Notes under the pieces: generated by a model
Database searches by the model: none
What the model saw: the letters and a program-made list of their open reading frames with translations, nothing else
What the model was told of the DNA's origin: nothing
Shown: piece by piece, positions 23,911 to 61,961 of the stretch
How positions within the stretch are numbered: the first letter of the stretch is position 1
Layout of the letters: every line of letters starts with the position of its first letter
Program-made: the position numbers and the translations under genes
From: Minisyncoccia bacterium
GTDB lineage: Bacteria; Patescibacteriota; Minisyncoccia; Moranbacterales; GCA-2747515
Direction: 5' to 3'
Assembly: GCA_041738235.1 (NCBI GenBank)
Contig: JBGSQF010000004.1
Span: 6,215-70,214, forward strand
DNA: 64,000 nt

Positions 23911-23931
23911 AAGAGAATTCCTTCTTCGTGC

Positions 23932-44799: not shown

Positions 44800-44828
44800 T
44801 TGACAAAAAAATATACCCCTCCTATAAT
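44800..44828 (+). promoter_or_regulatory. near-consensus sigma-70 promoter (TTGACA-17-TATAAT) heading the secretion-like locus
   Basis: TTGACA is at 44800..44805, followed by a 17-nt spacer, then TATAAT at 44823..44828. ORF 44800..45093 begins inside the -35 and is rejected. Confidence 0.65.
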
Positions 44829-44977
44829 GGGAACACTAATTTCTAAGGTTTTTGAAGGGATGGGCTATTGGTCGGTTCTTGTTTGGCCACTGCTCTTACC
44901 TCAAAGCCATCGAAAGGGAACAGCGTATCCGCACAGAAACGCCAGTTCAAAAAAAATCTTCCTCGTTCCTCACAGCA

Positions 44978-46078
44978 ATGTACTTCATTTCGAACATCCG
45001 GACTTTCGGATCCGTTCGAGGCATTCACTCATTCCGGAAATATTCAGCACTCGCAGTCGTTCTTGCGAGCGCTCTTTTTGTTTCCATTCATAACATTGAA
45101 TTGCGCAATCCAGGCAAAAGCACTCTCCCTCTCAACAGCCAGGACGATCAAACGAAACCAAATGCCTTTAAATTCGCATCTGAGCGCTATACGGAAGTAG
45201 CCTCACTTCCTTATGTAAAATCAGCTAATTTGGAAAACGTGACCAAAGAAGAGGAACTGGCTGAGATCATGCCTATCCAAAGAGATAACCCAGGCACGCA
45301 TCTCCAAGTACAATCACTGATCGCTACTGCCAACGCAATGGAAAAAGACCCTGAAGATGGTGGTGTGAAGCTCTACACCGTAAAAGAAGGGGACACACTA
45401 AGCTCTATTGCCAAGCAAAACAATATAACCGTCAATACTATCCTCTGGGCAAATACCATTGATGATGAGGATTCAATTGCTCCCGGAGATGAAATATTCA
45501 TCTTGCCCGTTGCGGGACTCAAACACATTATAAAAAATGGTGAGACACTTGATGCTATCGCAAAAGACTACAAGGCCGACAAGGATCAGATCATCGCCTT
45601 CAATAATATGCCTGCCAACGGCTCTGTAGAAGTGGGAGCGGAGATCATCATCCCCGGAGGGGAAAAAGAGCTTCCCAAGAAAGAAACAACCACACCCCTC
45701 CTTGGAAAACGAACATATGTTGCAAGTGAACCGGGTGGAGGGACACAAACAGTTTCCAAGCGACATGATAAACCAAATACCTTTCCTTATGGGTACTGTA
45801 CTTGGTATGTGGCTCAGGTAAAATACATTCCTTGGCGGGGAAATGCTGGGGCATGGCTGTATAACGCAAAAGCAATGGGTTACAAGACGGGAAAGACCGC
45901 GCGAGTTGGAGCGATCATTGTAACGACAGACAACACCTACTATGGACACGTAGCTATTGTAGAAAAAGTTTCAGGCGACACCATCACCGTAAGTGAAATG
46001 AACTACAAAGCCTGGGGAAAGAGTAATACTCGTGTGATATCAATAAATGACAGAAAGATCCGCGGATACATCTATTAA
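44978..46078 (+). CDS. LysM(x2)-CHAP domain peptidoglycan hydrolase, membrane-anchored
   Basis: The start was trimmed from the track's TTG at 44852 to ATG 44978 (MYFISNIRTFGSVRGIHSFRKYSALAVVLASALFVS, a signal/anchor). LysM segments: YTVKEGDTLSSIAKQNNITVNTILWAN and HIIKNGETLDAIAKDYKADKDQIIAFNN. CHAP segments: YGYCTWYVAQ (catalytic Cys) ... GHVAIVE (His). Confidence 0.8.
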   Translation: MYFISNIRTFGSVRGIHSFRKYSALAVVLASALFVSIHNIELRNPGKSTLPLNSQDDQTKPNAFKFASERYTEVASLPYVKSANLENVTKEEELAEIMPIQRDNPGTHLQVQSLIATANAMEKDPEDGGVKLYTVKEGDTLSSIAKQNNITVNTILWANTIDDEDSIAPGDEIFILPVAGLKHIIKNGETLDAIAKDYKADKDQIIAFNNMPANGSVEVGAEIIIPGGEKELPKKETTTPLLGKRTYVASEPGGGTQTVSKRHDKPNTFPYGYCTWYVAQVKYIPWRGNAGAWLYNAKAMGYKTGKTARVGAIIVTTDNTYYGHVAIVEKVSGDTITVSEMNYKAWGKSNTRVISINDRKIRGYIY

Positions 46079-46252
46079 AGATCACAACCTACCTCTTTAA
46101 GAGAAAGCCTCTCCAACCACGAGAGGCTTTCTTGTACAAAGAACAAAAATTTTTCAGTAGTAAAGACTCCTCACACAGACAAAATATTATCCACAAACAT
46201 TCTTGGATAAAAGTAGCGTGTTTTACTTTTTTAGTGTATCCTATAAGAAGAT

Positions 46253-48592
46253 ATGTTTACACCTTTTATGTTTGCAAAAAAAAATAAAAAGATCGTTCTT
46301 TTGTTTTGCCTTTTTTCTGTTGCATTCTTTCTTCTCCCGATATCTTTTCCGGGAGATTTGTCTTTTTCTCATGGGGACGTTTTACTTACCGCATCCGCTG
46401 ATAACACCGGAAGCACGGGCACGAACGAGTACAAAGCGGAGTGGACTAGTCCAACGACCTGGATGATTAATTTCCTTTTGATGATCCAAGGATTCTTAGC
46501 CTACTTTCTCGATGGAGCCGTTTCACTCCTGACCAAATTCATAGACGCCACCCAAGTAAGATCATTTCTCAATAACTCCATACTCACCGATGTTTGGAAA
46601 GCTGTTCGTGATGTGTGCAACCTCGCGTTTATTCTCACGCTTCTTTTTTCCGCGTTCGCCACGATATTTCATGTAGAGAAATACCACATCAAGACCATTA
46701 TCGTGAAGTTGGTATTGATGGCCCTTCTTATTAACTTCAGCCTCCCCATCACGCGATTTATCACCGATACCGGGAATGTCCCCATGTACTATATGGCACA
46801 GGTCCTCTTTGGAAGCTCCTCCACCACTAATGTCGGGCAACAAATAGAACAACAATCCAACATTGTTTGTGCCATCGTGCCCTATTACGATGACTGCTAT
46901 CAAAGAACACAAATATCGGAGGCACAATATGGGACATCCCAACAAGATGACTCTTCCGTACTTTTCGCTTCGATCGCACTCTTATTCCTCTTCACTATCA
47001 CCATGTTCGTCCTGGCGATGCTTTTTTGCATACGAACAGTAGCGCTCGGAATTCTCATTATCTTTTCTCCACTAGGATTTATAGGAGTGGCTGTCCCGGC
47101 ACTCAATAAATATTCCAGTGAGTTCTGGGAGTCCCTTATCAAATATACGTTCTTCGGTCCAGTGATGCTCTTCGTACTGGCAGTGTCAGTAAAGCTCATG
47201 TCCGCTATGACCGCCCAAGCTCTGGATAACAAACTTTCTACCACCGGATTTACCGGTATCGTCAGCGCTATCGAAGCTGTCGCTACCCCGATCGTTATCC
47301 TCTGGATGGGTATGATGATAGCCCAAAAGGCCAATGTTGCCGGTGCCGGTGCCATCATCGGTATGGCCCAAAAAGTGGCGAAGATGCCGGTAAACTTTGC
47401 AGGGAAGATGGCAAAGGGCATTCCTATGAGCGTGGGGAGATTTGCAGACAGAAGACTTGCCAAAACGGGGCAACGCTGGTCTGAGAGTGGTAACAGACTC
47501 GTAAGAGGTCTAGGTATCGGTATGCGAACACTCAGCCCAACAGCGACCAAAAATGCCTTCAAGGCAATGGGGGAGAAAAGAGATAGAGAAGCCTTTGGTC
47601 GCGCATCCGCAGGAGCTGAAGATCTCTTTACTAGCATTCGAGATCATACCATAAGCGCTATTAATCCTTATGCTTACTGGAAAGGTGTCCAGGGCGCTAA
47701 AGGTGCTGGCGCAGGTGAAAAATGGAAAGGATTCAAAAAAGGTCTCTTCTACAATGTAGACAGAAATGATAGCCTCTACGAAGCAACGGAAAAAGAAGCG
47801 AGTGATGAATCAAAAAGCCTGCCTATGCAAAAATTTGATTATGTCTACAACGAATTTCAAAACGCGATGGATCGTGGGCAAGTACCGCGTGTTCACGGTA
47901 TGTTACGCGCAATGACAGAAAATAATGACCTGGTCAATGAATTTGTATTAAAACATGGAGCAGAGTTTGATGGTGGAAACAACGAAGTCAGCCCTGAAAA
48001 CGTCCGTCATGTACTTGACGAAGCGTATAAAAAAGCTGGTGTTCACGACGCCGAACAAAGAGCTAAATACATAATGACGCTAGGCGAGATCGGAACATCT
48101 AAAGGAAACTTTGCGCTCACCGGAATGACCGATGTAGACAAAGATGGCAAGTTCTTTACATACGGTCAAGATCAAAGAAGCAAGGAAAATCAGGCAAAAG
48201 CTGCAGCCGGAAAACTTATAAACATGGAGTCACAAGCACGAGCACGAACCATGCACCCCGATATTTTCTTCAATTATACCATGGTGCCAGACCCAAGTGA
48301 TCCAACAAAAGAAATGAAAAAATTCTCAGGAATATCTGAGGTCGGAAAAGAGATCTTAAAAAATCTCAAGGGAGATGACCTTCAGCAAATGGATAGAACC
48401 CGTGGAGACCTTAAAAAGATCATGGAGCAGTATGTGACACAAATATCTACATCTTCTAATCAAGCGGATAGGGACGATTTCAATGCCCTACCCAAGCTTC
48501 AGAGAGAGTACATCGTCGCAATGAGCCACATGTCACAAGGTAAACAAAAGGGTGACGCTATGACAGCTGCAACAAGCAGTTCTACCTTATAA
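46253..48592 (+). CDS. polytopic membrane protein with large C-terminal soluble domain; candidate VirB6/TrbL-like secretion-channel component
   Basis: 779 aa. It has 6-8 TM helices in the N-terminal 380 aa and a hydrophilic K/E-rich C-terminal half. The VirB6 assignment is from topology, size and context only. Confidence 0.45.
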   Translation: MFTPFMFAKKNKKIVLLFCLFSVAFFLLPISFPGDLSFSHGDVLLTASADNTGSTGTNEYKAEWTSPTTWMINFLLMIQGFLAYFLDGAVSLLTKFIDATQVRSFLNNSILTDVWKAVRDVCNLAFILTLLFSAFATIFHVEKYHIKTIIVKLVLMALLINFSLPITRFITDTGNVPMYYMAQVLFGSSSTTNVGQQIEQQSNIVCAIVPYYDDCYQRTQISEAQYGTSQQDDSSVLFASIALLFLFTITMFVLAMLFCIRTVALGILIIFSPLGFIGVAVPALNKYSSEFWESLIKYTFFGPVMLFVLAVSVKLMSAMTAQALDNKLSTTGFTGIVSAIEAVATPIVILWMGMMIAQKANVAGAGAIIGMAQKVAKMPVNFAGKMAKGIPMSVGRFADRRLAKTGQRWSESGNRLVRGLGIGMRTLSPTATKNAFKAMGEKRDREAFGRASAGAEDLFTSIRDHTISAINPYAYWKGVQGAKGAGAGEKWKGFKKGLFYNVDRNDSLYEATEKEASDESKSLPMQKFDYVYNEFQNAMDRGQVPRVHGMLRAMTENNDLVNEFVLKHGAEFDGGNNEVSPENVRHVLDEAYKKAGVHDAEQRAKYIMTLGEIGTSKGNFALTGMTDVDKDGKFFTYGQDQRSKENQAKAAAGKLINMESQARARTMHPDIFFNYTMVPDPSDPTKEMKKFSGISEVGKEILKNLKGDDLQQMDRTRGDLKKIMEQYVTQISTSSNQADRDDFNALPKLQREYIVAMSHMSQGKQKGDAMTAATSSSTL

Positions 48593-48615
48593 AAAACTAG
48601 AGACGTACAAATTCT

Positions 48616-50436
48616 ATGTTAGCCACTCCTCAAAATATTTCTTTTGCTTTGGAATTTGCTGATTCTGACTTGGCAATGAAAATCCTCAAAGAAACTCACT
48701 TTGGGGAATCTCTCCCAGTTGTTAACGGAATCGTAAATCACCGGTCTAAACTCCTTGCCACAGCATTTCCCGAACTGCCCGACAATCTCGCCACAGAAGT
48801 CATGCAAAGACACCTTCTTGAGTTCTATCGACTCGGAATATCCTTTCGCGATCACCTCACCAATCGATATCTTTTTCAAGGACGAGTAGTAAAGAATGAG
48901 CAACAGGCAATACTCCTCAAATCTATCCGACAAAATAGTGAGGTACTCGCAGGAAAAACGATAGGGGAGTGGGTTCACCTTTTTGATCAAATTTATCCCC
49001 CAGAAGAACGCACTCAGGAAGAGATCCTTCCATTTTGTACAAAGATACTCAAAGACTCGTCTCAGTCAGAGCAACAGATCGCTGTTCTCAAAGATATTTT
49101 GGGTGTTTATGAAACACTTTTAACCACTCAACTCATAGACATCATCGATACAACCCTTGCACTAAAAAACATACGAAGGGAAAAAGGTACCCCAGAACAA
49201 GATCTCCCCAACGTTCTTAGAAGGACCCCCTCAACACAAACTAAAAACTTAAATAACGATCTACCCCAATCTAGAGCGGAGACCCAGCAAAAAAATATGG
49301 TTCGACTCTCTCTCAAAAAAGCGGTTGAAAAGTATCCGAGGATCATGAACGAACGGGTTACGGATAGCGATATCGTTTTTCGAGGATCCGACGGACCCGT
49401 TATTCCGAGCGTAAAGAACTGGATCACGGCGTACCACCAAGAAATGGGGTCGGGGACACACGAACCCTATGAACGTAGTGAATTTTTGTTTCACAATAAA
49501 AGCGCAATGTCCCTTTCTCAGCGAGAACGCACTGTTTTGTCCGAAGTCCTTCGCTCCCTCGATGAAGAAAGCGAGCTTCCCATCAATCCAGAAACTCAGT
49601 CAATTGACCTTCTCCAACTAGAACAGCTTACTGTATCATCAACAAATACCTCCTCCCGACAGCTCTCAAAGCAAGAAGTTATTCTCCCTTCTGCTTCTAG
49701 CCAAAACATCCCAGCAGCGGAAAGATCGGCTGCTTCCCTCTATACGAGAGAGCCCATCGATGACCGAAAAGACGCCTGGCACACAGCTGACACACAAAAC
49801 GCAACACCTCGATCTTCGAAGTACCTACAAAACACCTCCTTTTCGCAAAACCTTACTGGTGGAATCGACCCACGGTCTCGCCAGAACCCAAGTCAGACAC
49901 TGCAACGACCATCTGCCGAAAATACCGCTCAAAATTGGCAGGATGCCAATGTAAAAAAACCTACAATAACCAACCCCAACCTGAAAAGCATTCAGATGGA
50001 AGAGAAACAGAAAGAGTGGGAAGCTCCCAGATCATTCCCCGCTCAGCCCCAAGTACCCCCCTTACAGGCAAGCCACCAACACGGACCGATCAACCCCACT
50101 GCCAGGATGCAGCAAACACCTCGCTCAGCCACACCCCTCCCTCAAACAGATCATTTGGACTACACCGACTATTATCCTATTCCCAAAGAACCGAAGCGCC
50201 CCACACAAAGCATCCCCTCAAATCTTTCCTTTTCGTCGCCACATACTTTCCCCGTAGAAAAAATAGAGAAACAGTCCCTTGCAGCAAGTGCGGTTTCTCG
50301 CGCAAGCCAACAGAACATCCCGAACAACCGTCCGCAACAACCCCAAAGACAGCCACTCTCCACAGCAAAAAATTCACAAAATCCCACACAAAACCTATCT
50401 CAGAAACAACAGCCGAAGCGAATGATCATTGGATAG
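48616..50436 (+). CDS. hypothetical protein with Q/P/S/T-rich low-complexity C-terminal half
   Basis: 606 aa. It has a structured N-terminal ~330 aa, then a disordered region rich in Q, P, S, T and N. Confidence 0.5.
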   Translation: MLATPQNISFALEFADSDLAMKILKETHFGESLPVVNGIVNHRSKLLATAFPELPDNLATEVMQRHLLEFYRLGISFRDHLTNRYLFQGRVVKNEQQAILLKSIRQNSEVLAGKTIGEWVHLFDQIYPPEERTQEEILPFCTKILKDSSQSEQQIAVLKDILGVYETLLTTQLIDIIDTTLALKNIRREKGTPEQDLPNVLRRTPSTQTKNLNNDLPQSRAETQQKNMVRLSLKKAVEKYPRIMNERVTDSDIVFRGSDGPVIPSVKNWITAYHQEMGSGTHEPYERSEFLFHNKSAMSLSQRERTVLSEVLRSLDEESELPINPETQSIDLLQLEQLTVSSTNTSSRQLSKQEVILPSASSQNIPAAERSAASLYTREPIDDRKDAWHTADTQNATPRSSKYLQNTSFSQNLTGGIDPRSRQNPSQTLQRPSAENTAQNWQDANVKKPTITNPNLKSIQMEEKQKEWEAPRSFPAQPQVPPLQASHQHGPINPTARMQQTPRSATPLPQTDHLDYTDYYPIPKEPKRPTQSIPSNLSFSSPHTFPVEKIEKQSLAASAVSRASQQNIPNNRPQQPQRQPLSTAKNSQNPTQNLSQKQQPKRMIIG

Positions 50437-50528
50437 CGATGCGAAACTTCTGTTTTGAACGTGAAACAAAATAATACGCAACTTTTTATGTTTTCGTTCG
50501 AGTTTCTTCTGCTATAAATCGTAATTCT

Positions 50529-50930
50529 TTGCGTATGCACGCTGATGTCCCACAATTTATCGATGTAGAAGATAAGATCGCCGGCCCACTTACCTGGAAA
50601 CAACTCCTCTGGATGATCGGACTACTCGTTCTTCTTATCATTCTCTACAACATCTTTACAGCTGGAGCCTTTATCATGATCGCTATCCCCGTATCTCTTA
50701 TTTTTGTGGCCTTTGCATTCATTAAGCCTTATGGACAACCCATGACAACATTTGTCTATTACGGGGTTATGCATCTCTTCGGACCAAAAATATATGTCTG
50801 GAAAAGAGAAGTTCGAACGATCGCAAAACCGGTACAAAAGCCCACCAACACAACAAAAAAAGGAAATGCAGTTTCAGCTCTCACCCTCGAAGACATAGAA
50901 TCCCTCGCACAAAGACTTGATAGAAAATAA
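50529..50930 (+). CDS. small two-TM membrane protein, PrgI/VirB3-like
   Basis: 133 aa. It has two adjacent TM helices (LLWMIGLLVLLIILYNIF / AFIMIAIPVSLIFVAFAFI) and lies immediately upstream of the VirB4 ORFs, as PrgI/VirB3 does. Confidence 0.45.
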   Translation: MRMHADVPQFIDVEDKIAGPLTWKQLLWMIGLLVLLIILYNIFTAGAFIMIAIPVSLIFVAFAFIKPYGQPMTTFVYYGVMHLFGPKIYVWKREVRTIAKPVQKPTNTTKKGNAVSALTLEDIESLAQRLDRK

Positions 50931-50964
50931 CAACCCTGACAAAATATTTTAGAAATGCTATACT
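50926..50964 (+). promoter_or_regulatory. promoter-like element (CTGACA-17-TGcTATACT extended -10)
   Basis: The -35-like hexamer is at 50926..50931 and the extended -10 TGCTATACT at 50956..50964, about 95 nt upstream of the VirB4 N-terminal ORF. Confidence 0.4.
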
Positions 50965-51061
50965 GTGTGCACATTCGGTAAGCCTATGTGAATTTGTTTT
51001 GTTACGTGATATACAAATATATTTTACGCCATCTCCACACAATAATTAAGTTTCTTATTCC

Positions 51062-51754
51062 ATGGAATCACTTCATTCATCAAAACTCGTAGAGGGAGGT
51101 AGTAAGCAACCAAGCACACTGCGATTCGTTGACGTCTCTGAGATCAGAGATGGTGTTGTTATGCTTCGCAATGGCTCTCTTCGAGCCATTCTGGGAGTTT
51201 CCTCTATTAACTTCGACCTCAAATCGACCGACGAACAGGAAGGTATTATCCTTCAATTCCAGGGATTTCTTAACTCTCTCGATTTCCCAGCACAATTTCT
51301 CATCACATCAAGACGTCTCAATATACAGCCATACCTAGAAACGCTCACCAAGCACGAATCAGGACAAACGAACGAACTTCTACGCATCCAGATCGCTGAA
51401 TATAAAGATTTTATAGAGAACCTCACGAAAGTCAGTAACATCATGTCCAAACGATTTTACGTTGTTGTTCCCTTTTTCCCCATTGAAGCCAGTAAGAAAA
51501 GCTTTTTTGACACTTTGTCCGCCGTTGTCAACCCGCAAAAGACGATCATCTATAAACAGGAGCTCTTCGAAACATATAAAAATCAGCTCTTCCAACGAGT
51601 GGAGCATATCTCTTCAGGACTTTCAGGAACCGGGCTCCGAATGATACTCCTAAAAACAGAAGAGGTTATCGAACTCCTTCACAACTCCTACAACCCAAAC
51701 CTTTTTGCCACCGATATATTAAAAGGTCTCGAAAATGTAGATGTAAAGATGTAA
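51062..51754 (+). CDS. VirB4/TrbE-family N-terminal domain as a separate ORF
   Basis: 230 aa. VirB4 N-domain-like: RFVDVSEIRDGVVMLRNGSLRAILGVSSINFDLKSTDEQEGIILQFQGFLNSLDFPAQFLITSRRLNI. It ends 64 bp before, and in a different frame from, the ATPase ORF. Confidence 0.7.
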   Translation: MESLHSSKLVEGGSKQPSTLRFVDVSEIRDGVVMLRNGSLRAILGVSSINFDLKSTDEQEGIILQFQGFLNSLDFPAQFLITSRRLNIQPYLETLTKHESGQTNELLRIQIAEYKDFIENLTKVSNIMSKRFYVVVPFFPIEASKKSFFDTLSAVVNPQKTIIYKQELFETYKNQLFQRVEHISSGLSGTGLRMILLKTEEVIELLHNSYNPNLFATDILKGLENVDVKM

Positions 51755-51818
51755 AAAACAAAAGATCCTCGAGTGAGGAAGTCCTAAAAGATACTTTTTC
51801 ATTGTCAAAAACAATCCT

Positions 51819-53630: not shown

Positions 53631-53677
53631 ATGATCCATCTTCATGCTGAACAAGATTTTCACCAAAATGTGTTTTT

Positions 53678-54202: not shown

Positions 54203-54285
54203 AACACTCGATGAGAAGGAATCCTTTCTGCACACGCTTCTTTTGTTTTTCCTCTTCTCGAATACACAAAAATGCTCTATACTAG

Positions 54286-54927
54286 ATGTATATGTTACAA
54301 CAAAAAACAAAAAACATTTTTCTTGGGTCGATAGCGCTTATAAGTATTGCCGGGGCATTCCTTTTTCCTGCACACGATCTCTTTCAAACATTCCTTGCGG
54401 GAATTGCTTTCCTGATCATCTTCCCTTATTTAACAATAAAGTTCGTTCTCAAAGAATCTGTTAAGCAATACGGCCTCACATTTCCCCAATTTAACAAAAA
54501 ACTCTTTCTCCAATTTGGTTCACTCTTTCTCATATCTCTGGGTCTTTTCTTTATACTCTTCTCTTATACACCACTTGGAAAGCACTATTTTCCACCAACG
54601 TTCCTCACACAAAGATTTTTTTTCTTCTTTCTGTACAGCATTCTCGTTGGGGGAACCTTTTCTCTTATTTTTAGCGCTTTTTTTCAGGGATTTCTTCTCT
54701 TTTACTTTGAACGACTATGCAAAGAATGGGCCATCCTTCTTCAATGGTTTTGCTTTATGCTCTTTCTTTTTATAGCAGGTGATTGGGGATGGAACATGAC
54801 CCTCTACATATACATCTCCTTATTTTCTGGAGCGCTGGCCTACATCTCACGATCATTTCTCACGAGTTTTATCTTTACCTGGATCTTTGTTATACTAGCA
54901 GATATGTTTCTTTTAAAATTCTTCTAA
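54286..54927 (+). CDS. polytopic membrane protein, unknown function
   Basis: 213 aa with 6 predicted TM. There is no conserved CAAX-protease motif. TATACTAG sits immediately upstream at 54277. Confidence 0.5.
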   Translation: MYMLQQKTKNIFLGSIALISIAGAFLFPAHDLFQTFLAGIAFLIIFPYLTIKFVLKESVKQYGLTFPQFNKKLFLQFGSLFLISLGLFFILFSYTPLGKHYFPPTFLTQRFFFFFLYSILVGGTFSLIFSAFFQGFLLFYFERLCKEWAILLQWFCFMLFLFIAGDWGWNMTLYIYISLFSGALAYISRSFLTSFIFTWIFVILADMFLLKFF

Positions 54928-54932
54928 CCTCT

Positions 54933-57719
54933 ATGTTTTTCAAAAAGAAAACGCTTCTTGCAGGAATTCTCATTTTACAACTCTTTTTTACCAATACCGC
55001 TTCTGCTGACTGGTTCAATATTGGTAACTGGCCAAGTGTTGATGAGGTCGCCAGTCAGATCGAACAGCGCTACCATGTTAATACTGGATCCGTTCAAAAT
55101 CTAGGTGAGACGATGAACGTGTCCTCACAAAAAGAAACCGCACCCGAAGTAATGCTCTTTTTCTCTCCCAGTAATCCTGTCCCCGGAAAAGAAATTACTG
55201 CACAAGCAAATCCTGTTTACTTCAGTAATAGCACAGAACAGCTCTACTATACCTGGTACATCAAGCACAAGGACTGCGATAAAGACTCAAGTGTCAGTAA
55301 CGGAGATAGCAATAAATACTGTGATGTTGATGATGATGGAGATGTTGATGAAAAGGACTGGAAGATCGAAGCGATGCGAACGATCGCCAATAGCGGATTT
55401 GACACCAACCGAGCCGATTACAGCCAAAACACCGACAACGACGGTTATAAAGCTCGCTGGGGAGGCGATGAAAATACCAATATACCTGAACACTGTTACA
55501 TCCAAGACTTTAGTTCAGGAACCCTCTATGAATTTGCCAGTGGGTCTGAAAGCACCAGTTACGGTTGCGGGGCGGGACAAGTGGCACGCTGTGTCAAAAA
55601 TACCAACATTACCTGTACTGAGGATGCTCCCAATCCTTTCGACCCGCCAATAGAAAATACGTACGGAGTATGTCAGAACACCGGACAGGCCCCTCTTTGT
55701 TTTAATACCAGTGTTGTTTGCGAAGGGTCTTCCCTCGATCCAACCCTAACTCCAATGTGCGTTCCCTCGGGGTATGCCACACCCACCTGCACAGACTCCA
55801 ATCTCGATTCCTCACTCTGTGCACAAGTGGGAACACCAATTACCTCCTGCTCGCTCAATACCTCAAATGTAAGTAATGGTTGTAATCACCTCTTCCCTAA
55901 TGCCCCGGGAGATACTACTGGAGATGGAACTTTTGGTCTCAGTGAGGAAAAATTTTGGCAAACAAACCCTCAAGATCCCGACACGGCAGATACCGGGCAC
56001 GGGGACGAGGCCAATGTTGCCGGTCTTGGACAAGACACTTTTACCTGGAACTACGAAGTGGGAGACAAGGTGGGAGTAGTTGTTGAAGGAACCTCCATTA
56101 TCACCACGAAACATGACGATCGCTCTTATGCGATAATGTGGGCGCTTCCCAAAAATGATTGCCCCATCCAAAATGCTTCTTCTTATCGCCAAACTATACG
56201 AGGGTATGATGTGACTTTTTACACCACGACCACCAACATTAACGACTGTCTCGAAAAAAACCTCGTCGACCCGAGAGAGGGGGGCCAAACAGGAAAACTC
56301 GGGATCTCTCTTGATTACACCCCAAACACACCCTTCAACGATGCCTCCGGAGATGATTTTGGAACCACCCTTAATGTATTTAGCTCTCTCCAAAACCCAG
56401 AAAGCTCCAAAGACACGATCCGCTACGAATGGACCGTTGCCATAAGCAGAGATGGCACATTCAACCCCCGCGGGTACAGTGCCGATGAAGCAAGAGATAC
56501 AACAGGGGGACAGGGCTGGCGCGATATTACGAGTTTCCTTCGTGACAATAAACTCATTGATTTTACTCAAGGAAATGGGGTGGATAATATAAACATCAAG
56601 CTCAACCTCACCAATGAGCGCCTTGCCGATCTATCCACCAATATCGCAACTCTTTTTCCTGGAGAAACGGGGTATCTCAAAGTAACCGCGAGAGCTATAG
56701 AGTATGTTAGTCTTGATGAAGCTGCCCGAGAAGACACTGCGTCCGTCGTTATTCCCGTCACCTCTACCGATCGATACATATCCGCAAAAGGTGTTTCAGT
56801 TTCCGATGGCAAGCTCTCTCTTGGAGATGCGATCTGCGAGGAAAGGGTCGACGAGCAAACCAACCCCCTAGGAATTGGAAGAAACCTTTGTTTAGTAGCA
56901 AAAAATGAGATCATTGGACTAACCGTCAATAACACCAGTAATCTTACAGATTTTCAGTGGACCTCAAACGGACAACCTCTTAATTGCACCAATGATATGT
57001 CCTCTAATTGTTCCAATACATCCGCCACCAGCACAAACTTTCTCCCTATCATCGACGATTCCGGAAAAACCTACGAGGTGTCCCTTACGGCCATTAACGC
57101 CGAAACAGGAAAGAAAATCACCGTTTCCCGGACCTTCCTCATCGTTGATCCCACTGTAAAAATACGCTCTAACAATAGAGAACTTGCATGGCCAAAATAC
57201 CTTGGTTATTACAAAGGGACCGACGGTTACGCCTATGCCGACTATAGCGACGATGAGTTTCAGGGGTATCCTGGGGTAGCCCCCACTTTCTCCGTAGAAT
57301 TTATACCAAGTTGGATACAAAACCGAGCAAAATGGGAATGGTTTTTTAATGGAAATTCCATCGCAAAAGATATTCTCGAGGTAGGATTTCCCCTCGACGG
57401 TTCCCCTGGTGATGTGGTAAGCCTCTCAGTCAATGGTTTTTCTCTCGAAGATGACGCTATCCGCACTGCCCTTAAAACATTCTGGGACTATTCTGTGTTC
57501 GAAAGCACAGAACACACACTATCCCATAAGATCGATGTCCAGACTGTCCAAGGAGAAGCAGAAGAAACAGCTATGAGCTCACCAAAAGCCTTCTTCGCCG
57601 CTATCGCAAAAAATGTCTCTGGGCAGATCCTCTTCGTGGTTCAACTTTTCCTCTGGGTAGGAACTCTCATCGTTCTCTTGGGAGGTATATTCGCTCTAAG
57701 TGGATGGAATCGACGATAG
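54933..57719 (+). CDS. large Cys-rich secreted surface protein with C-terminal TM anchor
   Basis: The start was trimmed to ATG 54933 (MFFKKKTLLAGILILQLFFTNTASA, a signal peptide); the track starts at 54783. It is about 929 aa with many Cys and D/N/T-rich segments (DVDDDGDVDEKD). The C-terminal TM is ILFVVQLFLWVGTLIVLLGGIFAL. Confidence 0.6.
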   Translation: MFFKKKTLLAGILILQLFFTNTASADWFNIGNWPSVDEVASQIEQRYHVNTGSVQNLGETMNVSSQKETAPEVMLFFSPSNPVPGKEITAQANPVYFSNSTEQLYYTWYIKHKDCDKDSSVSNGDSNKYCDVDDDGDVDEKDWKIEAMRTIANSGFDTNRADYSQNTDNDGYKARWGGDENTNIPEHCYIQDFSSGTLYEFASGSESTSYGCGAGQVARCVKNTNITCTEDAPNPFDPPIENTYGVCQNTGQAPLCFNTSVVCEGSSLDPTLTPMCVPSGYATPTCTDSNLDSSLCAQVGTPITSCSLNTSNVSNGCNHLFPNAPGDTTGDGTFGLSEEKFWQTNPQDPDTADTGHGDEANVAGLGQDTFTWNYEVGDKVGVVVEGTSIITTKHDDRSYAIMWALPKNDCPIQNASSYRQTIRGYDVTFYTTTTNINDCLEKNLVDPREGGQTGKLGISLDYTPNTPFNDASGDDFGTTLNVFSSLQNPESSKDTIRYEWTVAISRDGTFNPRGYSADEARDTTGGQGWRDITSFLRDNKLIDFTQGNGVDNINIKLNLTNERLADLSTNIATLFPGETGYLKVTARAIEYVSLDEAAREDTASVVIPVTSTDRYISAKGVSVSDGKLSLGDAICEERVDEQTNPLGIGRNLCLVAKNEIIGLTVNNTSNLTDFQWTSNGQPLNCTNDMSSNCSNTSATSTNFLPIIDDSGKTYEVSLTAINAETGKKITVSRTFLIVDPTVKIRSNNRELAWPKYLGYYKGTDGYAYADYSDDEFQGYPGVAPTFSVEFIPSWIQNRAKWEWFFNGNSIAKDILEVGFPLDGSPGDVVSLSVNGFSLEDDAIRTALKTFWDYSVFESTEHTLSHKIDVQTVQGEAEETAMSSPKAFFAAIAKNVSGQILFVVQLFLWVGTLIVLLGGIFALSGWNRR

Positions 57720-57760
57720 ATCCCTGCACAAAAATTTTAAACTCTGATATTGTCTGTCTC

Positions 57761-58897
57761 ATGGCAAAAAAGTTTTTTATTGGCTCCTCCGTATTTCTCC
57801 TTGTCCTCCTTTCCCTGTGGGGTATTTATAATTTGTTTTTTGCCCAAAAAGAGACCTCGAAAGCATCTCCGGATGTCCCCACAACTGAAACACCAAAAAC
57901 CGAGATAAAAAAATCCACCGCGATCCAGATAGCCATCGACACACCCATACTTTCTCCATCAATATCTTCCGACGGAGATGGATCAATCCTCTACATCGAC
58001 AAAAACACCGGTTCATTGCAAAAACTTGATCTGGCTTCCGGGAAAAAAGAGGTCTTGTCCGATATAACGCTCACCTCTCCAATAAGCGCTATTTGGAAAA
58101 CAAATGGCACAGCAGCGATCGCGAAGGAATTCCGATCGAATGAACCCTCTTTTCGCCTCATATCTTTTGTAAACTCTGTCCCTCCAGCCTTACTCAAATG
58201 GGGTATTCGCTACCTCATCTGGGACGAACTTGAAAACAACATCATCTATACTTATCAAGATGCTGCTGGAAAAATGACCCTAAATCGCGCTCTCCCGGAC
58301 GGATCTGAGTGGAAAGAGCTTGAAAAACTGCCCTCAACGCCAGTGTTCATACAATCGATCCCCAAATCCCCCCTCATTGCTCTCTGGGAAAGACCGGCGA
58401 ACAACCGCGTAGGGGAACTCAAGACCATCAACATCACCAATGGGGAGACAAAAACGCTCTTTCCCGGAAAATATGGGGCCAACTATCTCTGGTCACCCAA
58501 TGGGGAGAACATTCTTCTCAGCTGGGCACCCGAAAAAAACAAATCGAGAATAACCTTAGCTATGATCAATAAGAATGGGGGTGAATATACCGACCTCAAC
58601 TTTCCTACCCTTGTAGAAAAGTGTGTTTGGCTTAACGACAACAAGACAGTGTACTGTGCCCTCCCCGGATCGCTCTCACAGACAGCCGTCATGCCCGATG
58701 ATTTTTATGGACAATCCTTCTCGAGTAGTGACACTTTCTGGAAGATCGACACAGAAACAGGAAAATCAGAGAGGATCGTGGCCTTGGAAGATATGTCTGA
58801 ATCATTTGATGCCGTTACTCTTTTGGTCTCTCCGGACGAATCCAAGTTGTTTTTTGTAAATCGAAAAGATAACAAGCTCTACTCGATTCAGTTATAG
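57761..58897 (+). CDS. membrane-anchored beta-propeller-like (TolB/DPP-IV N-terminal-like) protein
   Basis: The start was trimmed to MAKKFFIGSSVFLLVLLSLWGIY (TM). Repeated beta-strand-rich segments occur with W/D spacing (YLIWDELENN, LWSPNGEN, VWLNDNKTVY, LLVSPDESKLFFVN). Confidence 0.5.
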   Translation: MAKKFFIGSSVFLLVLLSLWGIYNLFFAQKETSKASPDVPTTETPKTEIKKSTAIQIAIDTPILSPSISSDGDGSILYIDKNTGSLQKLDLASGKKEVLSDITLTSPISAIWKTNGTAAIAKEFRSNEPSFRLISFVNSVPPALLKWGIRYLIWDELENNIIYTYQDAAGKMTLNRALPDGSEWKELEKLPSTPVFIQSIPKSPLIALWERPANNRVGELKTINITNGETKTLFPGKYGANYLWSPNGENILLSWAPEKNKSRITLAMINKNGGEYTDLNFPTLVEKCVWLNDNKTVYCALPGSLSQTAVMPDDFYGQSFSSSDTFWKIDTETGKSERIVALEDMSESFDAVTLLVSPDESKLFFVNRKDNKLYSIQL

Positions 58898-58906
58898 CTG
58901 TGTACT

Positions 58907-60031
58907 ATGAAAAAATCTTTCCTATTTTTTTCCATACTATTGGCTGTGTTTTTTGTTCCCTCATCCACCTTCGGTTTAGGAAATACAACAACCTGTCAAA
59001 CTACCCTCAGCTACTATAGAGCGTGTGTCTATGGTGGCACAGCCTGTTCAACTGGTTGGACAGAATCCTCTCTCGCCTGTTCAAACAATACCGCTGGAGA
59101 AACTGGAAAATGTTGTGAAAAAAGCACACAAACAACTTCCACCGGAAACCCAAGCTCTACAACCACATCTACCTCCGCTTCCTTCACTTACACTCCCCTT
59201 GAAGAGATCCCGGGACAAGGAACTACAAGTGACCTTTCTTCCTACATAAAGGGACTCTATTCTTTTAGTATCTTCTCTGTGGGAATAGCAGCCCTTCTTA
59301 TGGTGATCATAGGTGGGTTTATCTACGTAACGGCAGCAGGGAACACCTCGAATGTAGACAAAGGGAAGGAATATATAAAAGATGCCTTTTTTGGAATACT
59401 TATAGCCTTCGGATCGTATCTTATATTGTACGTCATCAATCCAGATCTAGTGAATGTCGATCTGAGCAGCTTAAGCAAGTTAGCAATGGTAGGGGGAAGT
59501 GGATCATCCTACACTGAACAAAGTACCCCCGTTAAGGGATCCGGAAATGGTACATGCGACCCGGTGCCAAGCGGATCTTGCTCTGTAGAGTCACTTAAAA
59601 GCACCTGTCTCGCATCAAATGCAGAGGCGTTTTCTCGCCTATGTAACAAGGAAAGTGCGGGCGCAGTAAACTCCTCAAGTGGAGTTGATATCTGCTCCAA
59701 TTATGGAAATGCGAGTTTTTCTGGAGGACTCTTCCAAATCAATGTTTTTTCAAATGGAAGCATGCTTGGGGACTCCCGCTGTAATAATTTGGGAAGCAAA
59801 GGCACCTGCGCCAACAGAAGAGCAAGTGACGGAGTATGTCTTGGTTGGAACTGCCAATTAACTGCTGGAAATGCTAATGACCTCAATTATTGTATGGGTC
59901 TCACAAAAACAGCAGATAAAAATATTTCTGTAGCCTGTCAACTCTCCGGAAACGGCGTCAACACAACCCCCTGGGCGTGCAGCGCCAACAAATGCGGACT
60001 CGGCGGCACATCAAGCTCTTTCTGTAAGTAA
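58907..60031 (+). CDS. secreted Cys-rich protein containing a VirB2/TrbC-pilin-like two-helix hairpin (paralog 1)
   Basis: 374 aa. It has a signal peptide, a Cys-rich N-domain and a T/S linker. The hairpin follows: LYSFSIFSVGIAALLMVIIGGFIYV (TM1) - TAAGNTSNVDKGKEYIKDA (short loop) - FFGILIAFGSYLILYVI (TM2). A Cys-rich C-terminal domain of about 190 aa follows. Confidence 0.6.
   Translation: MKKSFLFFSILLAVFFVPSSTFGLGNTTTCQTTLSYYRACVYGGTACSTGWTESSLACSNNTAGETGKCCEKSTQTTSTGNPSSTTTSTSASFTYTPLEEIPGQGTTSDLSSYIKGLYSFSIFSVGIAALLMVIIGGFIYVTAAGNTSNVDKGKEYIKDAFFGILIAFGSYLILYVINPDLVNVDLSSLSKLAMVGGSGSSYTEQSTPVKGSGNGTCDPVPSGSCSVESLKSTCLASNAEAFSRLCNKESAGAVNSSSGVDICSNYGNASFSGGLFQINVFSNGSMLGDSRCNNLGSKGTCANRRASDGVCLGWNCQLTAGNANDLNYCMGLTKTADKNISVACQLSGNGVNTTPWACSANKCGLGGTSSSFCK
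59163..59480. repeat. ~320-bp near-identical direct repeat, copy A (pilin-like hairpin-coding segment)
   Basis: It matches 61111..61430 at about 85-90% identity, including a 58-nt identical run CCACATCTACCTCCGCTTCCTTCACTTACACTCCCCTTGAAGAGATCCCGGGACAAGG. Confidence 0.85.
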
Positions 60032-60049
60032 ATTTTCATTTACAAGTTT

Positions 60050-60532
60050 ATGTCTTTTTTCAAAAAAACCCTTCTTTTTACAGCACTTTTTCTTATTATC
60101 TTTGGAGTTATTGCATACCTCTTTCTCAAAAAGACCTCCCCATCAAACACAACCCCAAAACAAACAGAGGAAACAATACAACTTAATAAACAAATAGAGT
60201 CTACCGTCCTTCCAGAAGCCCAACTGATTGACAAAGGCACTTACCTCATACAGGAAGGGAAACAAGAAGCCAATTCTCCAAATCCAGATTATTCGATATA
60301 CTATTTTCAAGAAACAGGACAATATAGTATCGTTCTTCTCAAAACCCCCCTCGAAGAAACTAGAAAAGAAGCGGAAGAAGCTTTCCTAAAACAGGTCGCG
60401 GCATCCGGCGTTACAAAACAAGATGCATGCAAACTCTTTGTCACCGTTCAAACCATAGCAAGTGTCGACGAGATAAACTCTGGAAGAAATTTTGGACTCA
60501 GTTTTTGCCCAAATGCCAAAAACTTCGATTAG
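60050..60532 (+). CDS. small N-terminally anchored secreted protein, unknown function
   Basis: 160 aa with an N-terminal TM (LLFTALFLIIFGVIAYLFL) and no motif. Confidence 0.45.
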   Translation: MSFFKKTLLFTALFLIIFGVIAYLFLKKTSPSNTTPKQTEETIQLNKQIESTVLPEAQLIDKGTYLIQEGKQEANSPNPDYSIYYFQETGQYSIVLLKTPLEETRKEAEEAFLKQVAASGVTKQDACKLFVTVQTIASVDEINSGRNFGLSFCPNAKNFD

Positions 60533-60644
60533 TAAAGGGCCTTTTAAAAAATTCTTCTCTGCTCTATTCGTCAAAATCCTTTGTTTTGTTACAATATTAA
60601 CCAGCTATAGCCAACTAAAAGATCCTTCTTTAAATACCCTTTTG

Positions 60645-60659
60645 TGCTATACTAGTATC
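60645..60659 (+). promoter_or_regulatory. extended -10 / palindromic TATACTAGTAT element upstream of pilin-like paralog 2
   Basis: TGcTATACT is at 60645..60653, and the palindromic core ATACTAGTAT is shared with the 30525 palindrome. Confidence 0.45.
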
Positions 60660-60689
60660 ATTAATAAAATATATTTTATTTATCCTTCC

Positions 60690-61961
60690 ATGACCAAGAG
60701 CCTACTTCCAAGAAAGATGTTCCTCCTCTTTTTTATTTTCTCCTGTTTCGTTTTTCTGCCAAGTCTGTGTCATGGGGTCGTGGAAACGCCAGTTCCCTCA
60801 GTGGACTGTGAGAATCCTTCAATTTGGGGAGGAAGTTGCGGAGGAGTATGCGGACAAGGACGAAAATCAGTAGGAGTATGTACTGGAAATTTAACCGGTG
60901 GCTGGTGCTGCGTCACAAGCGAGCAATACGATAAACTTGCAGAACAAGGAAAGGTACCCAAAGAAACGCCAACATCAACAGGAACCGATGAGTGCCAAAA
61001 GAACGGGGGAACTTGTAGCCAAAGCTGTTCCGGTATAGGGGCCGCTTACGGAAATTGCGAAAACGGACCGCCGGTTGTGTATTGTTGCCAAAAAAATAGC
61101 ACGTCTACATCCACATCTACCTCCGCTTCCTTCACTTACACTCCCCTTGAAGAGATCCCGGGACAAGGCATAACAACCGACCTTTCCTCGTATATAAAAG
61201 GGCTCTACTCCTTTGCAATATTCTCTGTAGGGATAGCAGCCCTTCTCATGGTGATCATAGGTGGGTTTATCTACGTAACGGCGGCAGGGAATACCTCAAA
61301 TGTAGATAAAGGGAAAGGATATATTCGCGATGCTCTTATTGGGATACTTATCGCCTTTGGATCCTACCTCATCCTCTACGTGATCAACCCGGACCTGGTA
61401 AATATTGATCTGAGCAACTTAAATAAGCTCTCTCTTTCCGGAGGAGTGGGCTCCACTGGATCGACCGGATCAGGAACGGGCGGTTCAGGAAGTGCAACCT
61501 CAAACCCAGGAACCTGCGGGGGTATAAAGGTCCAATCAGGAACGGCAGGATGTTCACTAGCCTCAGGTGATCTTGGTGGAATGCTCTCCTGCATGGTGGG
61601 GAAGGGAATAAATAACTACTCCGGATACGTCTACTCCGTCACTTCCAATGCCACCGGAGATAACAAAGAGGCTTCTGCTGCTTGCTGCGGAAACGGACAC
61701 TCTGCAAAATGCCCTCATAGTAATACAAGTTGTCATCACGGATGTACAATGTCAGACAAGGGAAGCTCTTACTCGGTTGACTATTTGACCACCAGCCTTT
61801 CAGACACACAGATCTGCGAAGTAGTAGATATTGCCATAGCTTGCGGCGCAACTACCAGTGGAAATATCTGGGGACCCAAAACCATGTGTAACGGAAAGGT
61901 CCATTACGCAAGTGGCCATGGCAACCACCTCCACATCCCTACGAGTAGCTGTGGTCACTAA
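60690..61961 (+). CDS. secreted Cys-rich protein containing a VirB2/TrbC-pilin-like two-helix hairpin (paralog 2)
   Basis: The start was trimmed to ATG 60690 (MTKSLLPRKMFLLFFIFSCFVFLPSLCHG, a signal peptide); the track starts at 60492. It has the same SASFTYTPLEEIPGQG...LYSFAIFSVGIAALLMVIIGGFIYVTAAGNTSNVDKGKGYIRDALIGILIAFGSYLILYVINPDLVN block as paralog 1. The Cys-rich N- and C-domains differ. Confidence 0.6.
   Translation: MTKSLLPRKMFLLFFIFSCFVFLPSLCHGVVETPVPSVDCENPSIWGGSCGGVCGQGRKSVGVCTGNLTGGWCCVTSEQYDKLAEQGKVPKETPTSTGTDECQKNGGTCSQSCSGIGAAYGNCENGPPVVYCCQKNSTSTSTSTSASFTYTPLEEIPGQGITTDLSSYIKGLYSFAIFSVGIAALLMVIIGGFIYVTAAGNTSNVDKGKGYIRDALIGILIAFGSYLILYVINPDLVNIDLSNLNKLSLSGGVGSTGSTGSGTGGSGSATSNPGTCGGIKVQSGTAGCSLASGDLGGMLSCMVGKGINNYSGYVYSVTSNATGDNKEASAACCGNGHSAKCPHSNTSCHHGCTMSDKGSSYSVDYLTTSLSDTQICEVVDIAIACGATTSGNIWGPKTMCNGKVHYASGHGNHLHIPTSSCGH
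61111..61430. repeat. ~320-bp near-identical direct repeat, copy B
   Basis: See copy A (59163..59480). The two copies are 1948 bp apart in direct orientation. Confidence 0.85.

Follow-up and report, generated by a model that had tools for sequence, protein, structure and literature searches.

Much of bacterial diversity belongs to the Patescibacteria, which apparently live attached to host cells. Their T4SSs are encoded on the chromosome, are related to the MPF-FATA class, lack a relaxase and have VirB2-like pilins (PMC12102498). In Southlakia (Saccharibacteria), epibiotic growth requires the T4SS and pilin genes (PMC10633639); a T4SS was thereby for the first time shown to be essential to its own carrier bacterium. 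VirB8 is rarely found in Patescibacteria (PMC12102498), and it is a published puzzle that most genomes with VirB2-like pilins have no recognisable VirB1.

Here, we compare with these systems, namely SEML1_0006-0019 of Southlakia epibionticum (PMC10633639) and those in the survey of Quinonero-Coronel et al. 2025 (PMC12102498), a locus of 13 genes, all in the same direction, which spans positions 44978-61961 on the + strand of a stretch of 64 kb (the window). The locus is very probably a chromosomal T4SS of Candidatus Moranbacteria that came from Gram-positive conjugation machinery and was repurposed for host-cell interaction. An earlier note on this DNA had already preferred a secretion or cell-contact T4SS of an epibiont to a conjugative element, and all the points tested here agree with it; the positions of its thirteen consecutive plus-strand genes hold as well. 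The features are as follows.

44800-44828, + strand: sigma-70-type promoter-like site TTGACA-17-TATAAT, predicted from a 12/12 consensus match
44978-46078, + strand: g01, membrane-anchored LysM-LysM-CHAP peptidoglycan hydrolase of 366 aa, VirB1 analogue (Pfam)
46253-48592, + strand: g02, extended VirB6/TrbL-like polytopic membrane protein (homologue matches, structural model)
48616-50436, + strand: g03, 606 aa, conserved central region and Q/P-rich C-terminal half (no family match)
50529-50930, + strand: g04, PrgI/VirB3-like two-TM protein (Pfam PrgI)
50936-50964, + strand: possible internal promoter upstream of g05, CTGACA-17-TATACT with TG extension (10/12, consensus match only)
51062-51754, + strand: g05, TrsD-like protein, the N-terminal part of VirB4 as its own gene (NCBIfam)
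51819-53630, + strand: g06, VirB4 ATPase of the Gram-positive conjugation (CD1110) type (NCBIfam, Pfam)
53678-54202, + strand: g07, small membrane protein with 2-3 TM segments (TM-like segments)
54286-54927, + strand: g08, polytopic CPBP/Rce1-like membrane protein with a degenerate catalytic motif (PF02517 in its family)
54933-57719, + strand: g09, secreted Cys-rich protein of 928 aa with a C-terminal TM anchor (sequence features)
57704-58897, + strand: g10, N-terminally anchored extracytoplasmic protein with five W-containing repeats (repeats)
58907-60031, + strand: g11, signal peptide, 6-Cys module, T4SS pilin hairpin and lysozyme/SLT_3-like domain
59156-59455 (pilin core of g11) and 61104-61403 (in g13), + strand: direct repeat of 300 nt, 84% identical
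60050-60532, + strand: g12, N-terminally anchored extracytoplasmic protein of 160 aa (TM at residues 1-31)
60690-61961, + strand: g13, signal peptide, two 6-Cys modules, pilin hairpin and Cys/His-rich C-terminal domain

In other T4SSs, VirB6, PrgI/VirB3 and VirB4 make up the channel in the membrane together with its motor, and counterparts of all of these are found here. g06 matches the NCBIfam model conju_CD1110 at 2.9e-112 (376 bits, with the cut-off at 325; model positions 176-734) and TraG P-loop, AAA_10 and CagE_TrbE_VirB in Pfam, while g05 matches TrsD (1.2e-7), VirB4_plasma (model positions 105-279) and CD1110 (positions 11-119) in NCBIfam, so that the two proteins together tile the VirB4 models. 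The VirB4 ATPase in two ORFs of the earlier note stands as far as the ATPase is concerned, with intact Walker A (KSGAGKS, residues 259-265, nt 52593-52613) and Walker B (LLVVDE, residues 467-472, nt 53217-53234), but the split is a conserved TrsD plus VirB4 pair. A frameshift or broken VirB4 gene is ruled out, since each of the 77 related loci compared has g05 (mean column identity 70%) as an ORF of its own. The adjoining small VirB3-type protein g04 matches PrgI at 8.9e-10 (39.4 bits, above the Pfam cut-off of 27), as had been noted for this two-TM protein, and TcpE at 5.6e-4. g02 has a TM core at about residues 66-390 followed by a hydrophilic tail of about 400 residues; TrbL/VirB6 is matched by 14 of 59 homologues, and the best PDB match of its structural model is TrwI/VirB6, both of which bear out its assignment as a VirB6-type polytopic channel protein. 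Extended forms of VirB6 are recognised as a class (PMC12857230). Pfam also finds the two LysM copies (7e-23) and the CHAP domain (8e-20) that had been noticed in g01. Its start is most likely the ATG at 44978, and two public contigs carry the same gene call of 366 aa. The sole Cys of g01 (C274) and a GHVA motif (323-326) lie within the CHAP match, and these are probably the catalytic pair. The core parts confirmed are the VirB1-like hydrolase, VirB6, PrgI/VirB3, TrsD plus VirB4 and, as described below, VirB2-like pilins.

In a collection with one genome per species, relatives of this VirB4 are found at 372 places, and the best 80 of these loci were kept. These best 80 of 372 are 65-71% identical and are titled Moranbacteria, Moraniibacteriota, Parcubacteria or Patescibacteria group, except that about 30 of them are titled 'uncultured Bdellovibrionales'; the VirB4 relatives thus point to a host in Candidatus Moranbacteria, that is, to a patescibacterium. 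Among the best 80 of 372 loci, g04 is directly upstream of g05 in 74, g03 homologues lie between VirB6 and PrgI in 48, and g01 adjoins the VirB6 gene in 44. There are two locus types among the relatives, and the other type has short pilin genes just upstream of PrgI.

With the MPF-FATA systems (pCF10 Prg, pIP501 Tra, pGO1 Trs, CTn2 CD1110) the locus shares a VirB4 that passes the CD1110 equivalog cut-off, a TrsD plus VirB4 gene pair like that of pGO1 together with PrgI, a CHAP-type wall hydrolase in the VirB1 role, as TraG and PrgK, and the absence of outer-membrane core parts. It differs from them in that it has VirB2-like pilins, is chromosomally fixed and lacks a nearby relaxase, T4CP or oriT; in addition, neither a PrgB-type adhesin nor a VirB8-like PrgL/TraM could be recognised in the locus. 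Could the locus, then, be a conjugative element, or what is left of an ICE, and move DNA with a relaxase and a coupling protein encoded elsewhere? Its VirB4 best matches Gram-positive ICE ATPases (conju_CD1110), a tyrosine recombinase is encoded at 16935-17849, and many Patescibacteria genomes encode VirD4 homologues well away from virB4 (PMC12102498); a T4CP may be encoded elsewhere in this genome. However, domain searches of the larger ORFs of the 64-kb window found no relaxase, VirD4/TcpA (T4CP) or VirB11, in line with the earlier note, and few Patescibacteria have a relaxase, 103 genomes according to PMC12102498. The recombinase lies 28 kb from the locus amid core genes, and we read it as XerC/D-like. 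A mobile-element context, that is, a border integrase, atypical composition or a variable insertion site, was not found: one flank of the locus contains S1, RbfA and tRNAs and the other Wzy-type genes, and GC is flat at about 0.44. From these housekeeping flanks, the flat GC and the lack of relaxase, VirD4 and VirB11 in the window, the locus is judged not to be a mobile element. Moreover, the core genes travel together beside housekeeping genes in related genomes, where ComM, KsgA and UvrD adjoin the same genes in many species, and this synteny indicates vertical inheritance. A conjugative role is therefore highly improbable.

The repurposed T4SS proposed here resembles instead the published Patescibacteria T4SSs. 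Like them, it is chromosomal, is without a relaxase, has an MPF-FATA-related VirB4 with an adjoining TrsD-like protein, PrgI/VirB3, VirB6 and wall hydrolases, and encodes near virB4 pilins of the VirB2-like kind (here PF18895; PF18895 or PF04956 in this clade, PMC12102498), which are normally missing from Gram-positive T4SSs; KsgA lies near virB4 in relatives of the window. Being relaxase-less, chromosomal and pilin-bearing, it is thus a system of a known kind. The make-up of its pilin components had been thought unlike any described system, and this is correct for the enzyme fusion, not for the system itself; we could find no description only of the pilin-enzyme domain fusion and of some accessory genes. 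Here the pilins are not short ones in an array but are fused to hydrolase-like domains and N-terminal 6-Cys modules, and the window adds the LysM-CHAP VirB1 analogue, the long VirB6 tail, g03, g08 and g09. None of these extra features is mentioned in PMC10633639 or PMC12102498.

A relaxase-less machine could also be a DNA or nucleotide importer, run in reverse like Helicobacter ComB or archaeal Ced, which would feed a nucleotide-auxotrophic organism. Such an importer fits the lack of relaxase and T4CP, ComM adjoins VirB4 in related genomes, g06 weakly matches CedB (2e-13) and CedD (1.7e-5), and the top Foldseek match of the pilin model, although non-significant, is the Aeropyrum conjugation-type pilus. 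On the other hand, the CedB and CedD matches are far weaker than that to conjugative VirB4, DNA uptake in Southlakia needs ComEC while the T4SS is essential independently (PMC12857230, summarising PMC10633639), and free-DNA uptake needs no wall-degrading heads on pilins. We thus consider an importer improbable, if less so than a conjugative element.

The pilin-like proteins of the proposed host-directed T4SS are g11 and g13, encoded 5-8 kb downstream of virB4. Of the two paralogous Cys-rich pilin-like proteins expected from the earlier note, both do carry the hairpin, but the paralogy is limited to a pilin core of 96 residues, which is 90% identical, and the other domains are unrelated. In g11, the 6-Cys module is at residues 30-70, the hairpin at about 97-192 and the lysozyme/SLT_3-like domain at about 211-370; in g13, the hairpin is at 152-247 and the Cys/His-rich domain at 274-423. 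The start codon of g13 is uncertain, as NCBI lists a protein, P0010, with 59 additional residues (482 aa), which would start near 60513. The N- and C-terminal domains of both proteins are predicted to be outside the cell. In the g11 C-terminal domain, conserved E-S ... G-L-F-Q motifs with an intact catalytic Glu correspond to the lysozyme-like pattern (catalytic Glu in E-S, and G-L-x-Q), and SLT_3 or SLT is matched by 26 of 38 homologues; a Foldseek search with g11 gave no lysozyme match. The g13 C-terminal domain, without a Pfam match, has a family of 31 representatives among 1.84 billion proteins, and in most of the full-length members the domain is immediately preceded by the pilin loop and INPDL motifs. 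H70, H76, D91, H137, H140 and H142 are invariant in it, and H76, D91, H140 and H142 fit the His...Asp / His-x-His pattern of the LAS type. Its sole PDB profile match, 1lbu, a Zn D-Ala-D-Ala carboxypeptidase (M15A), is not significant (E 3.6), and the zinc-peptidase-like (M15/VanY-like) motifs are suggestive only. C-terminal regions of other relatives on the same core show M15-like or SLT motifs when read by eye, among which Pfam confirms only the SLT case P0051.

Are g11 and g13 really filament subunits? They could be membrane-anchored enzymes instead, held by the two helices of the hairpin, which could remodel the cell's own wall, a VirB1-like activity joined to the hairpin, and stand beside the T4SS core for historical reasons. 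Pfam T4SS_pilin (PF18895) scores of g11 and g13 are 22.6 and 19.7 bits, under the cut-off of 26.6 (E-values 1.2e-4 and, for g13, 8.9e-4), but the model is matched by 32 of 38 homologues, several above the cut-off and the best at 5e-12. Structural matches of the hairpin are generic, and domains of 150-200 residues at both ends of a pilin may, as it seems to us, be hard to fit in a helical filament; yet a core 90% identical between otherwise unrelated proteins suggests selection for a shared assembly interface. In the best 80 of 372 loci, most of those with the gene order of the window have no pilin gene beside g09, while in about 22 loci short members of the pilin family lie directly upstream of PrgI-TrsD-VirB4. 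Finally, the separate LysM-CHAP enzyme, if its role is as presumed, could already open the cell's own wall. The anchored-enzyme reading is thus unlikely, though it deserves more weight than an importer.

How, then, would pilins of the proposed host-directed T4SS carry such domains? The g01 hydrolase would open the cell's own wall so that the machine can assemble. As is the case for other T4SSs, VirB4 would pull the pilin cores from the membrane and polymerise them on VirB6 into a short conduit or pilus, and the nearly identical core of g11 and g13 would allow the two to co-assemble. Each pilin would bring a different wall-degrading domain, lysozyme/lytic-transglycosylase-like for g11 and zinc-peptidase-like for g13, and these domains, on the filament surface or released by processing, would locally digest host peptidoglycan at the contact site. 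g09 and the CPBP-like g08 would be lineage-specific envelope parts of the same apparatus.

As a tentative generalisation, which we hold to be possible rather than probable, VirB2-type pilins of Patescibacteria may be 'armed pilins', interchangeable carriers of wall-degrading enzymes. They would consist of a constant co-assembling core, variable C-terminal heads and N-terminal defensin-like 6-Cys modules, the T4SS filament itself would cut host peptidoglycan at the contact site, and the head repertoire would track host range, by analogy with polymorphic toxins or evolved VgrG spikes. Structural subunits fused to wall hydrolases are known: evolved VgrG3 of the Vibrio T6SS, FlgJ, phage T4 gp5 and tape-measure lysins. 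In these, as in g11 and g13, a structural module that polymerises or forms a tip and a lysozyme-, transglycosylase- or peptidase-type domain are in one polypeptide, with wall-cutting placed where the apparatus crosses peptidoglycan (as is predicted for g11 and g13), but none of them is a VirB2-type pilin, since they belong to spikes, rod caps or tails, and we found no precedent for a T4SS pilin with wall-hydrolase domains. Agrobacterium VirB1 is an SLT-type lytic transglycosylase of a T4SS, whose processed C-terminal fragment VirB1* is exported and joins the T-pilus. It is a separate protein, whereas in g11 the lysozyme-like domain is covalently on the pilin core, and the second pilin, g13, bears a different domain with the zinc-peptidase-like motifs. 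Should the pilin itself be able to supply VirB1-type activity, this would explain why VirB1 is missing from most genomes with VirB2-like pilins. Pilins equipped with wall-cutting enzymes would also offer a concrete and testable way through the host wall.

The locus further provides a Moranbacteria-specific parts list, i.e., extended VirB6, split VirB4, the CPBP-like protein and the 928-residue orphan surface protein, which is usable for structural or genetic work. The promoter-like site ahead of the genes is, as had been claimed, a full consensus, and the sole 12/12 match in 44400-62400; overall, promoter-like sites are not enriched (20 observed, 27 expected). Intergenic gaps are -16 to 174 nt, and a + strand scan found no terminator-like sites between the locus genes.

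As for the accessory proteins, g03, the Q/P-rich protein that had been pointed out before, matches nothing in Pfam or NCBIfam; it has no TM-like segment or signal peptide and is therefore probably cytoplasmic. W269, Y273 and R287 are invariant in its family. The two small membrane proteins noticed behind VirB4 are g07 and g08. g07 gives only weak DUF matches in Pfam and NCBIfam, and a small TM protein also follows VirB4 in the other locus type. CPBP/Rce1-like proteases are defined by an EExxxR motif and also by His motifs. PF02517 (Rce1-like) is matched by 12 of 22 members of the g08 family (best 2.8e-7), but g08 has S at both near-invariant Glu positions (118 and 130) and FFQG for FFRG, and the family consensus contains no conserved His; g08 thus lacks the defining motifs of an intramembrane protease of this type. 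g09, the large Cys-rich anchored surface protein (given as 929 aa before), has a signal-like N-terminus, 20 Cys, a TM segment at 895-925 and a basic tail, with no match in Pfam or among PDB sequences. By tblastn, g07 is poorly conserved (5 of the best 80 of 372 loci); in the same 80, g08 is directly upstream of g09 in 39, g09 itself occurs in 52 with a mean column identity of 42%, and g10 in 7, always adjoining Wzy genes. g09 thus appears to be an orphan family conserved with the system. g10, first called a beta-propeller, has no Pfam or PDB match; we judge its repeats PD40-like and its membership in the system uncertain. No VirB8/PrgL-type family was matched among the 13 proteins in Pfam or NCBIfam. 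g12, likewise without a family match in Pfam or NCBIfam, could be an inhibitor or immunity partner of the lysozyme-type pilin, and a pilin-fusion gene followed by g12 is also present in three related loci (L068, L076 and L080). As a bitopic protein, g12 is also a candidate for a VirB8-type role.

The thirteen plus-strand genes described here encode a type IV secretion system (T4SS) of an already known kind in its Moranbacterial form, and what is new in it are pilins with enzyme-like domains and conserved orphan accessory proteins. The earlier note, made by a model from the sequence alone, had proposed an apparatus for secretion or cell contact rather than a complete conjugative element, and this proposal is supported by the core parts present, the lack of a relaxase or T4CP in the window, the housekeeping flanks and the flat GC. 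The locus consists of:

44800-44828, plus strand, promoter-like site
44978-46078, plus strand, LysM/CHAP protein (g01)
46253-48592, plus strand, VirB6 (g02)
48616-50436, plus strand, accessory protein (g03)
50529-50930, plus strand, PrgI/VirB3 (g04)
51062-51754, plus strand, TrsD-like protein (g05)
51819-53630, plus strand, VirB4 (g06)
53678-54202, plus strand, g07
54286-54927, plus strand, CPBP/Rce1-like protein (g08)
54933-57719, plus strand, Cys-containing anchored protein (g09)
57704-58897, plus strand, accessory protein (g10)
58907-60031, plus strand, pilin with lysozyme/SLT-like domain (g11)
60050-60532, plus strand, small anchored extracytoplasmic protein (g12)
60690-61961, plus strand, pilin with Cys/His-rich domain (g13)

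The ORFs across 44800-61961 are consecutive and co-directional behind a consensus promoter-like site, just as first read, with intergenic gaps of -16 to 174 nt and no terminator-like site found on the plus strand between the genes. The site, TTGACA-17-TATAAT, is a 12/12 match and the sole perfect one across 18 kb; promoter-like sites overall are not enriched (20 seen, 27 expected from shuffles), and a second, weaker one with a TG extension lies at 50936-50964, upstream of g05. g01 most likely starts with the ATG at 44978 (366 aa), the call made on two public contigs.

Most of the channel and motor parts named in the earlier note were recovered by profile searches. g01 has two LysM domains and one CHAP domain (Pfam), with its sole Cys and a GHVA motif both inside the CHAP match, and g04 exceeds the Pfam cut-off for PrgI/VirB3. 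For g02 itself, neither Pfam nor NCBIfam nor the PDB gave a direct match, even by profile search, while 14 of its 59 homologues match TrbL/VirB6. g06 matches the CD1110-type Gram-positive conjugal ATPase at 2.9e-112, past the NCBIfam equivalog cut-off, with intact Walker A (KSGAGKS) and Walker B (LLVVDE) motifs. It is to be noted that VirB4 occupies two ORFs. g05 has no match in Pfam. In NCBIfam it matches TrsD (1.2e-7) and positions 105-279 of a mycoplasma VirB4 model; of the CD1110 model it spans positions 11-119 and g06 positions 176-734, and both together tile a full-length VirB4. Every one of the 77 related loci that have both encodes them as separate ORFs, with varying frames and gaps, so that a frameshifted or pseudogenised VirB4 was rejected; the two ORFs are an ancestral pair of genes and not an artefact of sequencing or decay. 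In a 2025 survey, TrsD is the commonest VirB4-associated component in Patescibacteria (PMC12102498). In three of the related loci (L021, L028 and L073) and in others, the VirB4 ORF is N-terminally 170-270 residues longer than that of the window (for example, 9149-11773 in L028 and 3240-5885 in L073), which points to an insertion or an additional domain at that end. Direct PDB sequence searches with g02, g05, g09, g10, g11 and g13 gave nothing significant.

Is the locus part of a mobile element? The window has a flat GC of ~0.44 and elsewhere encodes core functions, namely GyrA, PNPase, ComM, Ddl, KsgA, UvrD, FtsH, TilS, ribosomal protein S1, RbfA, L19 and ten tRNAs; Rfam and tRNA scans of the window found nothing but the tRNA genes, none of them within the locus. 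Relaxase, VirD4/TcpA and VirB11 domains are absent from all of its larger ORFs, as had been noticed before. A single tyrosine recombinase (16935-17849), taken to be XerC/D-like, lies 28 kb from the locus amid core genes. These surroundings, the flat GC, the missing domains and the distance of the recombinase together indicate a chromosomal locus, not an island. An ICE or mobile island was rejected, composition, flanks and synteny all being against it, and conjugation is unlikely. Three other proteins amid the housekeeping genes of the window, a Fic/DOC protein (6804-7892), one bearing a matrixin-type (M10) metalloprotease motif (8047-9045) and a bacterial TSP3-repeat protein (15846-16838), have no relation to the locus and may be secreted or act in host interaction.

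The earlier note recognised no described system that matches the composition of the pilin-like components. As a kind, the system is not undescribed: a class of Patescibacteria T4SSs is known, which are chromosomal, related to Gram-positive MPF-FATA systems and usually without relaxase, and which, unusually, carry VirB2-like pilins, at times in arrays (PMC12102498). The window locus has every defining feature of this class that was tested, while it fails those tested for a conjugative element. Southlakia epibionticum cannot grow on its host without its T4SS genes and pilin array (PMC10633639; review, PMC12857230). In the literature, no description was found of pilins fused to wall hydrolases, of g09 or of the CPBP-like gene.

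The two pilin proteins, g11 and g13, are built alike: a signal peptide is followed by one or two C-C-C-C-CC modules and a Ser/Thr linker, then by a hydrophobic hairpin of two helices, and the C-terminal domain is rich in Cys. The earlier note had called them paralogues with a pilin-like hairpin. The hairpin stands: Pfam T4SS_pilin is weak in the window copies and is matched by 32/38 homologues (best 5e-12). The paralogy is confined to 96 hairpin residues, with 90% protein identity and 84% over 300 nt, outside which the two are unrelated. Among g11 homologues, SLT_3 is matched in 22/38 and SLT in 4/38, and the lytic-transglycosylase signature E-S ... G-L-F-Q is kept across the family; Foldseek gave no significant match for g11. 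An exhaustive HMMER search of 1.84 billion proteins found 31 representatives of the g13 C-domain family, most full-length members of which have the pilin loop and INPDL motifs directly upstream. His70, His76, Asp91, His137, His140 and His142 are invariant, together with several invariant or near-invariant Cys, and the sole PDB profile match is the zinc D-Ala-D-Ala carboxypeptidase of Streptomyces albus, aligned at the His/Asp motif (E 3.6, not significant). The domain is probably, if not provenly, a LAS-type peptidase. Further proteins related to this pilin core have C-terminal regions in which visual inspection suggested M15-like or SLT motifs, Pfam confirming only the SLT case (P0051), and the C-terminal heads look interchangeable. 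The main competing reading takes g11 and g13 for mere membrane-anchored autolysins. A VirB1-type domain within a pilin would be one explanation why most genomes with VirB2-like pilins lack a recognisable VirB1.

The N-terminal six-cysteine modules (C..C..C..C..CC; 58994-59116 in g11, 60768-60911 and 60993-61088 in g13) resemble, we think, beta-defensins, which could be convergence. Pfam Defensin_beta is matched by 2/38 homologues at 1e-3, one relative (P0047) has its best PDB alignment with human beta-defensin 3, at a non-significant E of 0.7, and a predicted model has three short strands in this region. A g11 homologue (P0032, 497 aa), with T4SS_pilin and an SLT domain, carries the label of a Candidatus Nanoarchaeia archaeon MAG; either the contig was binned wrongly or the gene may have passed between two groups of ultra-small epibionts.

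How might such a machine work? Parts and domain architectures are observed, and its working is inferred from them. The LysM-CHAP enzyme would open the cell's own wall, VirB6, PrgI, TrsD and VirB4 would build the membrane channel and motor, and VirB4 would extract and polymerise the pilin cores. The extracytoplasmic hydrolase heads, either on the filament surface or freed through processing, may then break down the peptidoglycan of the host where the two cells touch. A pilin trimmed at its C-terminus has a precedent in TrbC of RP4. For the system as a whole, the main competing reading is DNA import.

Among the accessory proteins, g09 (928 aa) has a signal peptide, 20 Cys and a C-terminal anchor, and is found in 52/80 loci at 42% mean column identity, with no match in Pfam or PDB; g03, which gave no Pfam or NCBIfam match, is conserved in 48/80 loci, and g10 is present in only 7/80. 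The CPBP/Rce1-like model is matched by 12/22 members of the g08 family, and in the window copy the two glutamates of the motif and its arginine are gone. Some CPBP-like proteins, S. aureus SpdC among them, are non-catalytic partners of wall hydrolases, which might have a bearing on g08. g12 is always 3' of the pilin-lysozyme gene in the 4/4 genomes having it (homologues at ~15689 in L068, ~16217 in L076 and ~18271 in L080), and may serve as its inhibitor or immunity protein, or else as a counterpart of VirB8.

A one-genome-per-species collection yielded VirB4 relatives at 372 places, and the 80 best of these are 65-71% identical; their titles are mostly Candidatus Moranbacteria, Moraniibacteriota, Parcubacteria or Patescibacteria group, with ~30 'uncultured Bdellovibrionales'. 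The synteny comparison that the earlier note had called for, made by tblastn of the window proteins against these 80 loci, gave two layouts. The window type runs LysM/CHAP, VirB6, g03, PrgI, TrsD, VirB4, (g07), g08 and g09, followed in some by g10 and Wzy genes. The other has short pilin genes immediately 5' of PrgI-TrsD-VirB4, and ComM, KsgA and UvrD between VirB4 and LysM/CHAP-VirB6; in L001, L009 and L013 (~11.8-20 kb in each), a 314-335-aa protein is also part of this stretch. In the window the same housekeeping genes are at 17883-29292 on the opposite strand, and thus the relative arrangement of this block and the T4SS genes has changed within Moranbacteria. Just three other loci have, 3' of g09, a pilin-lysozyme gene with a g12 homologue behind it, in a different order relative to g10, so that this end of the locus is variable. 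Convergent with it are two neighbouring O-antigen-ligase-like (Wzy_C) polytopic proteins (61939-63913, minus strand), a pair that is syntenic with g10 in 7 related loci.
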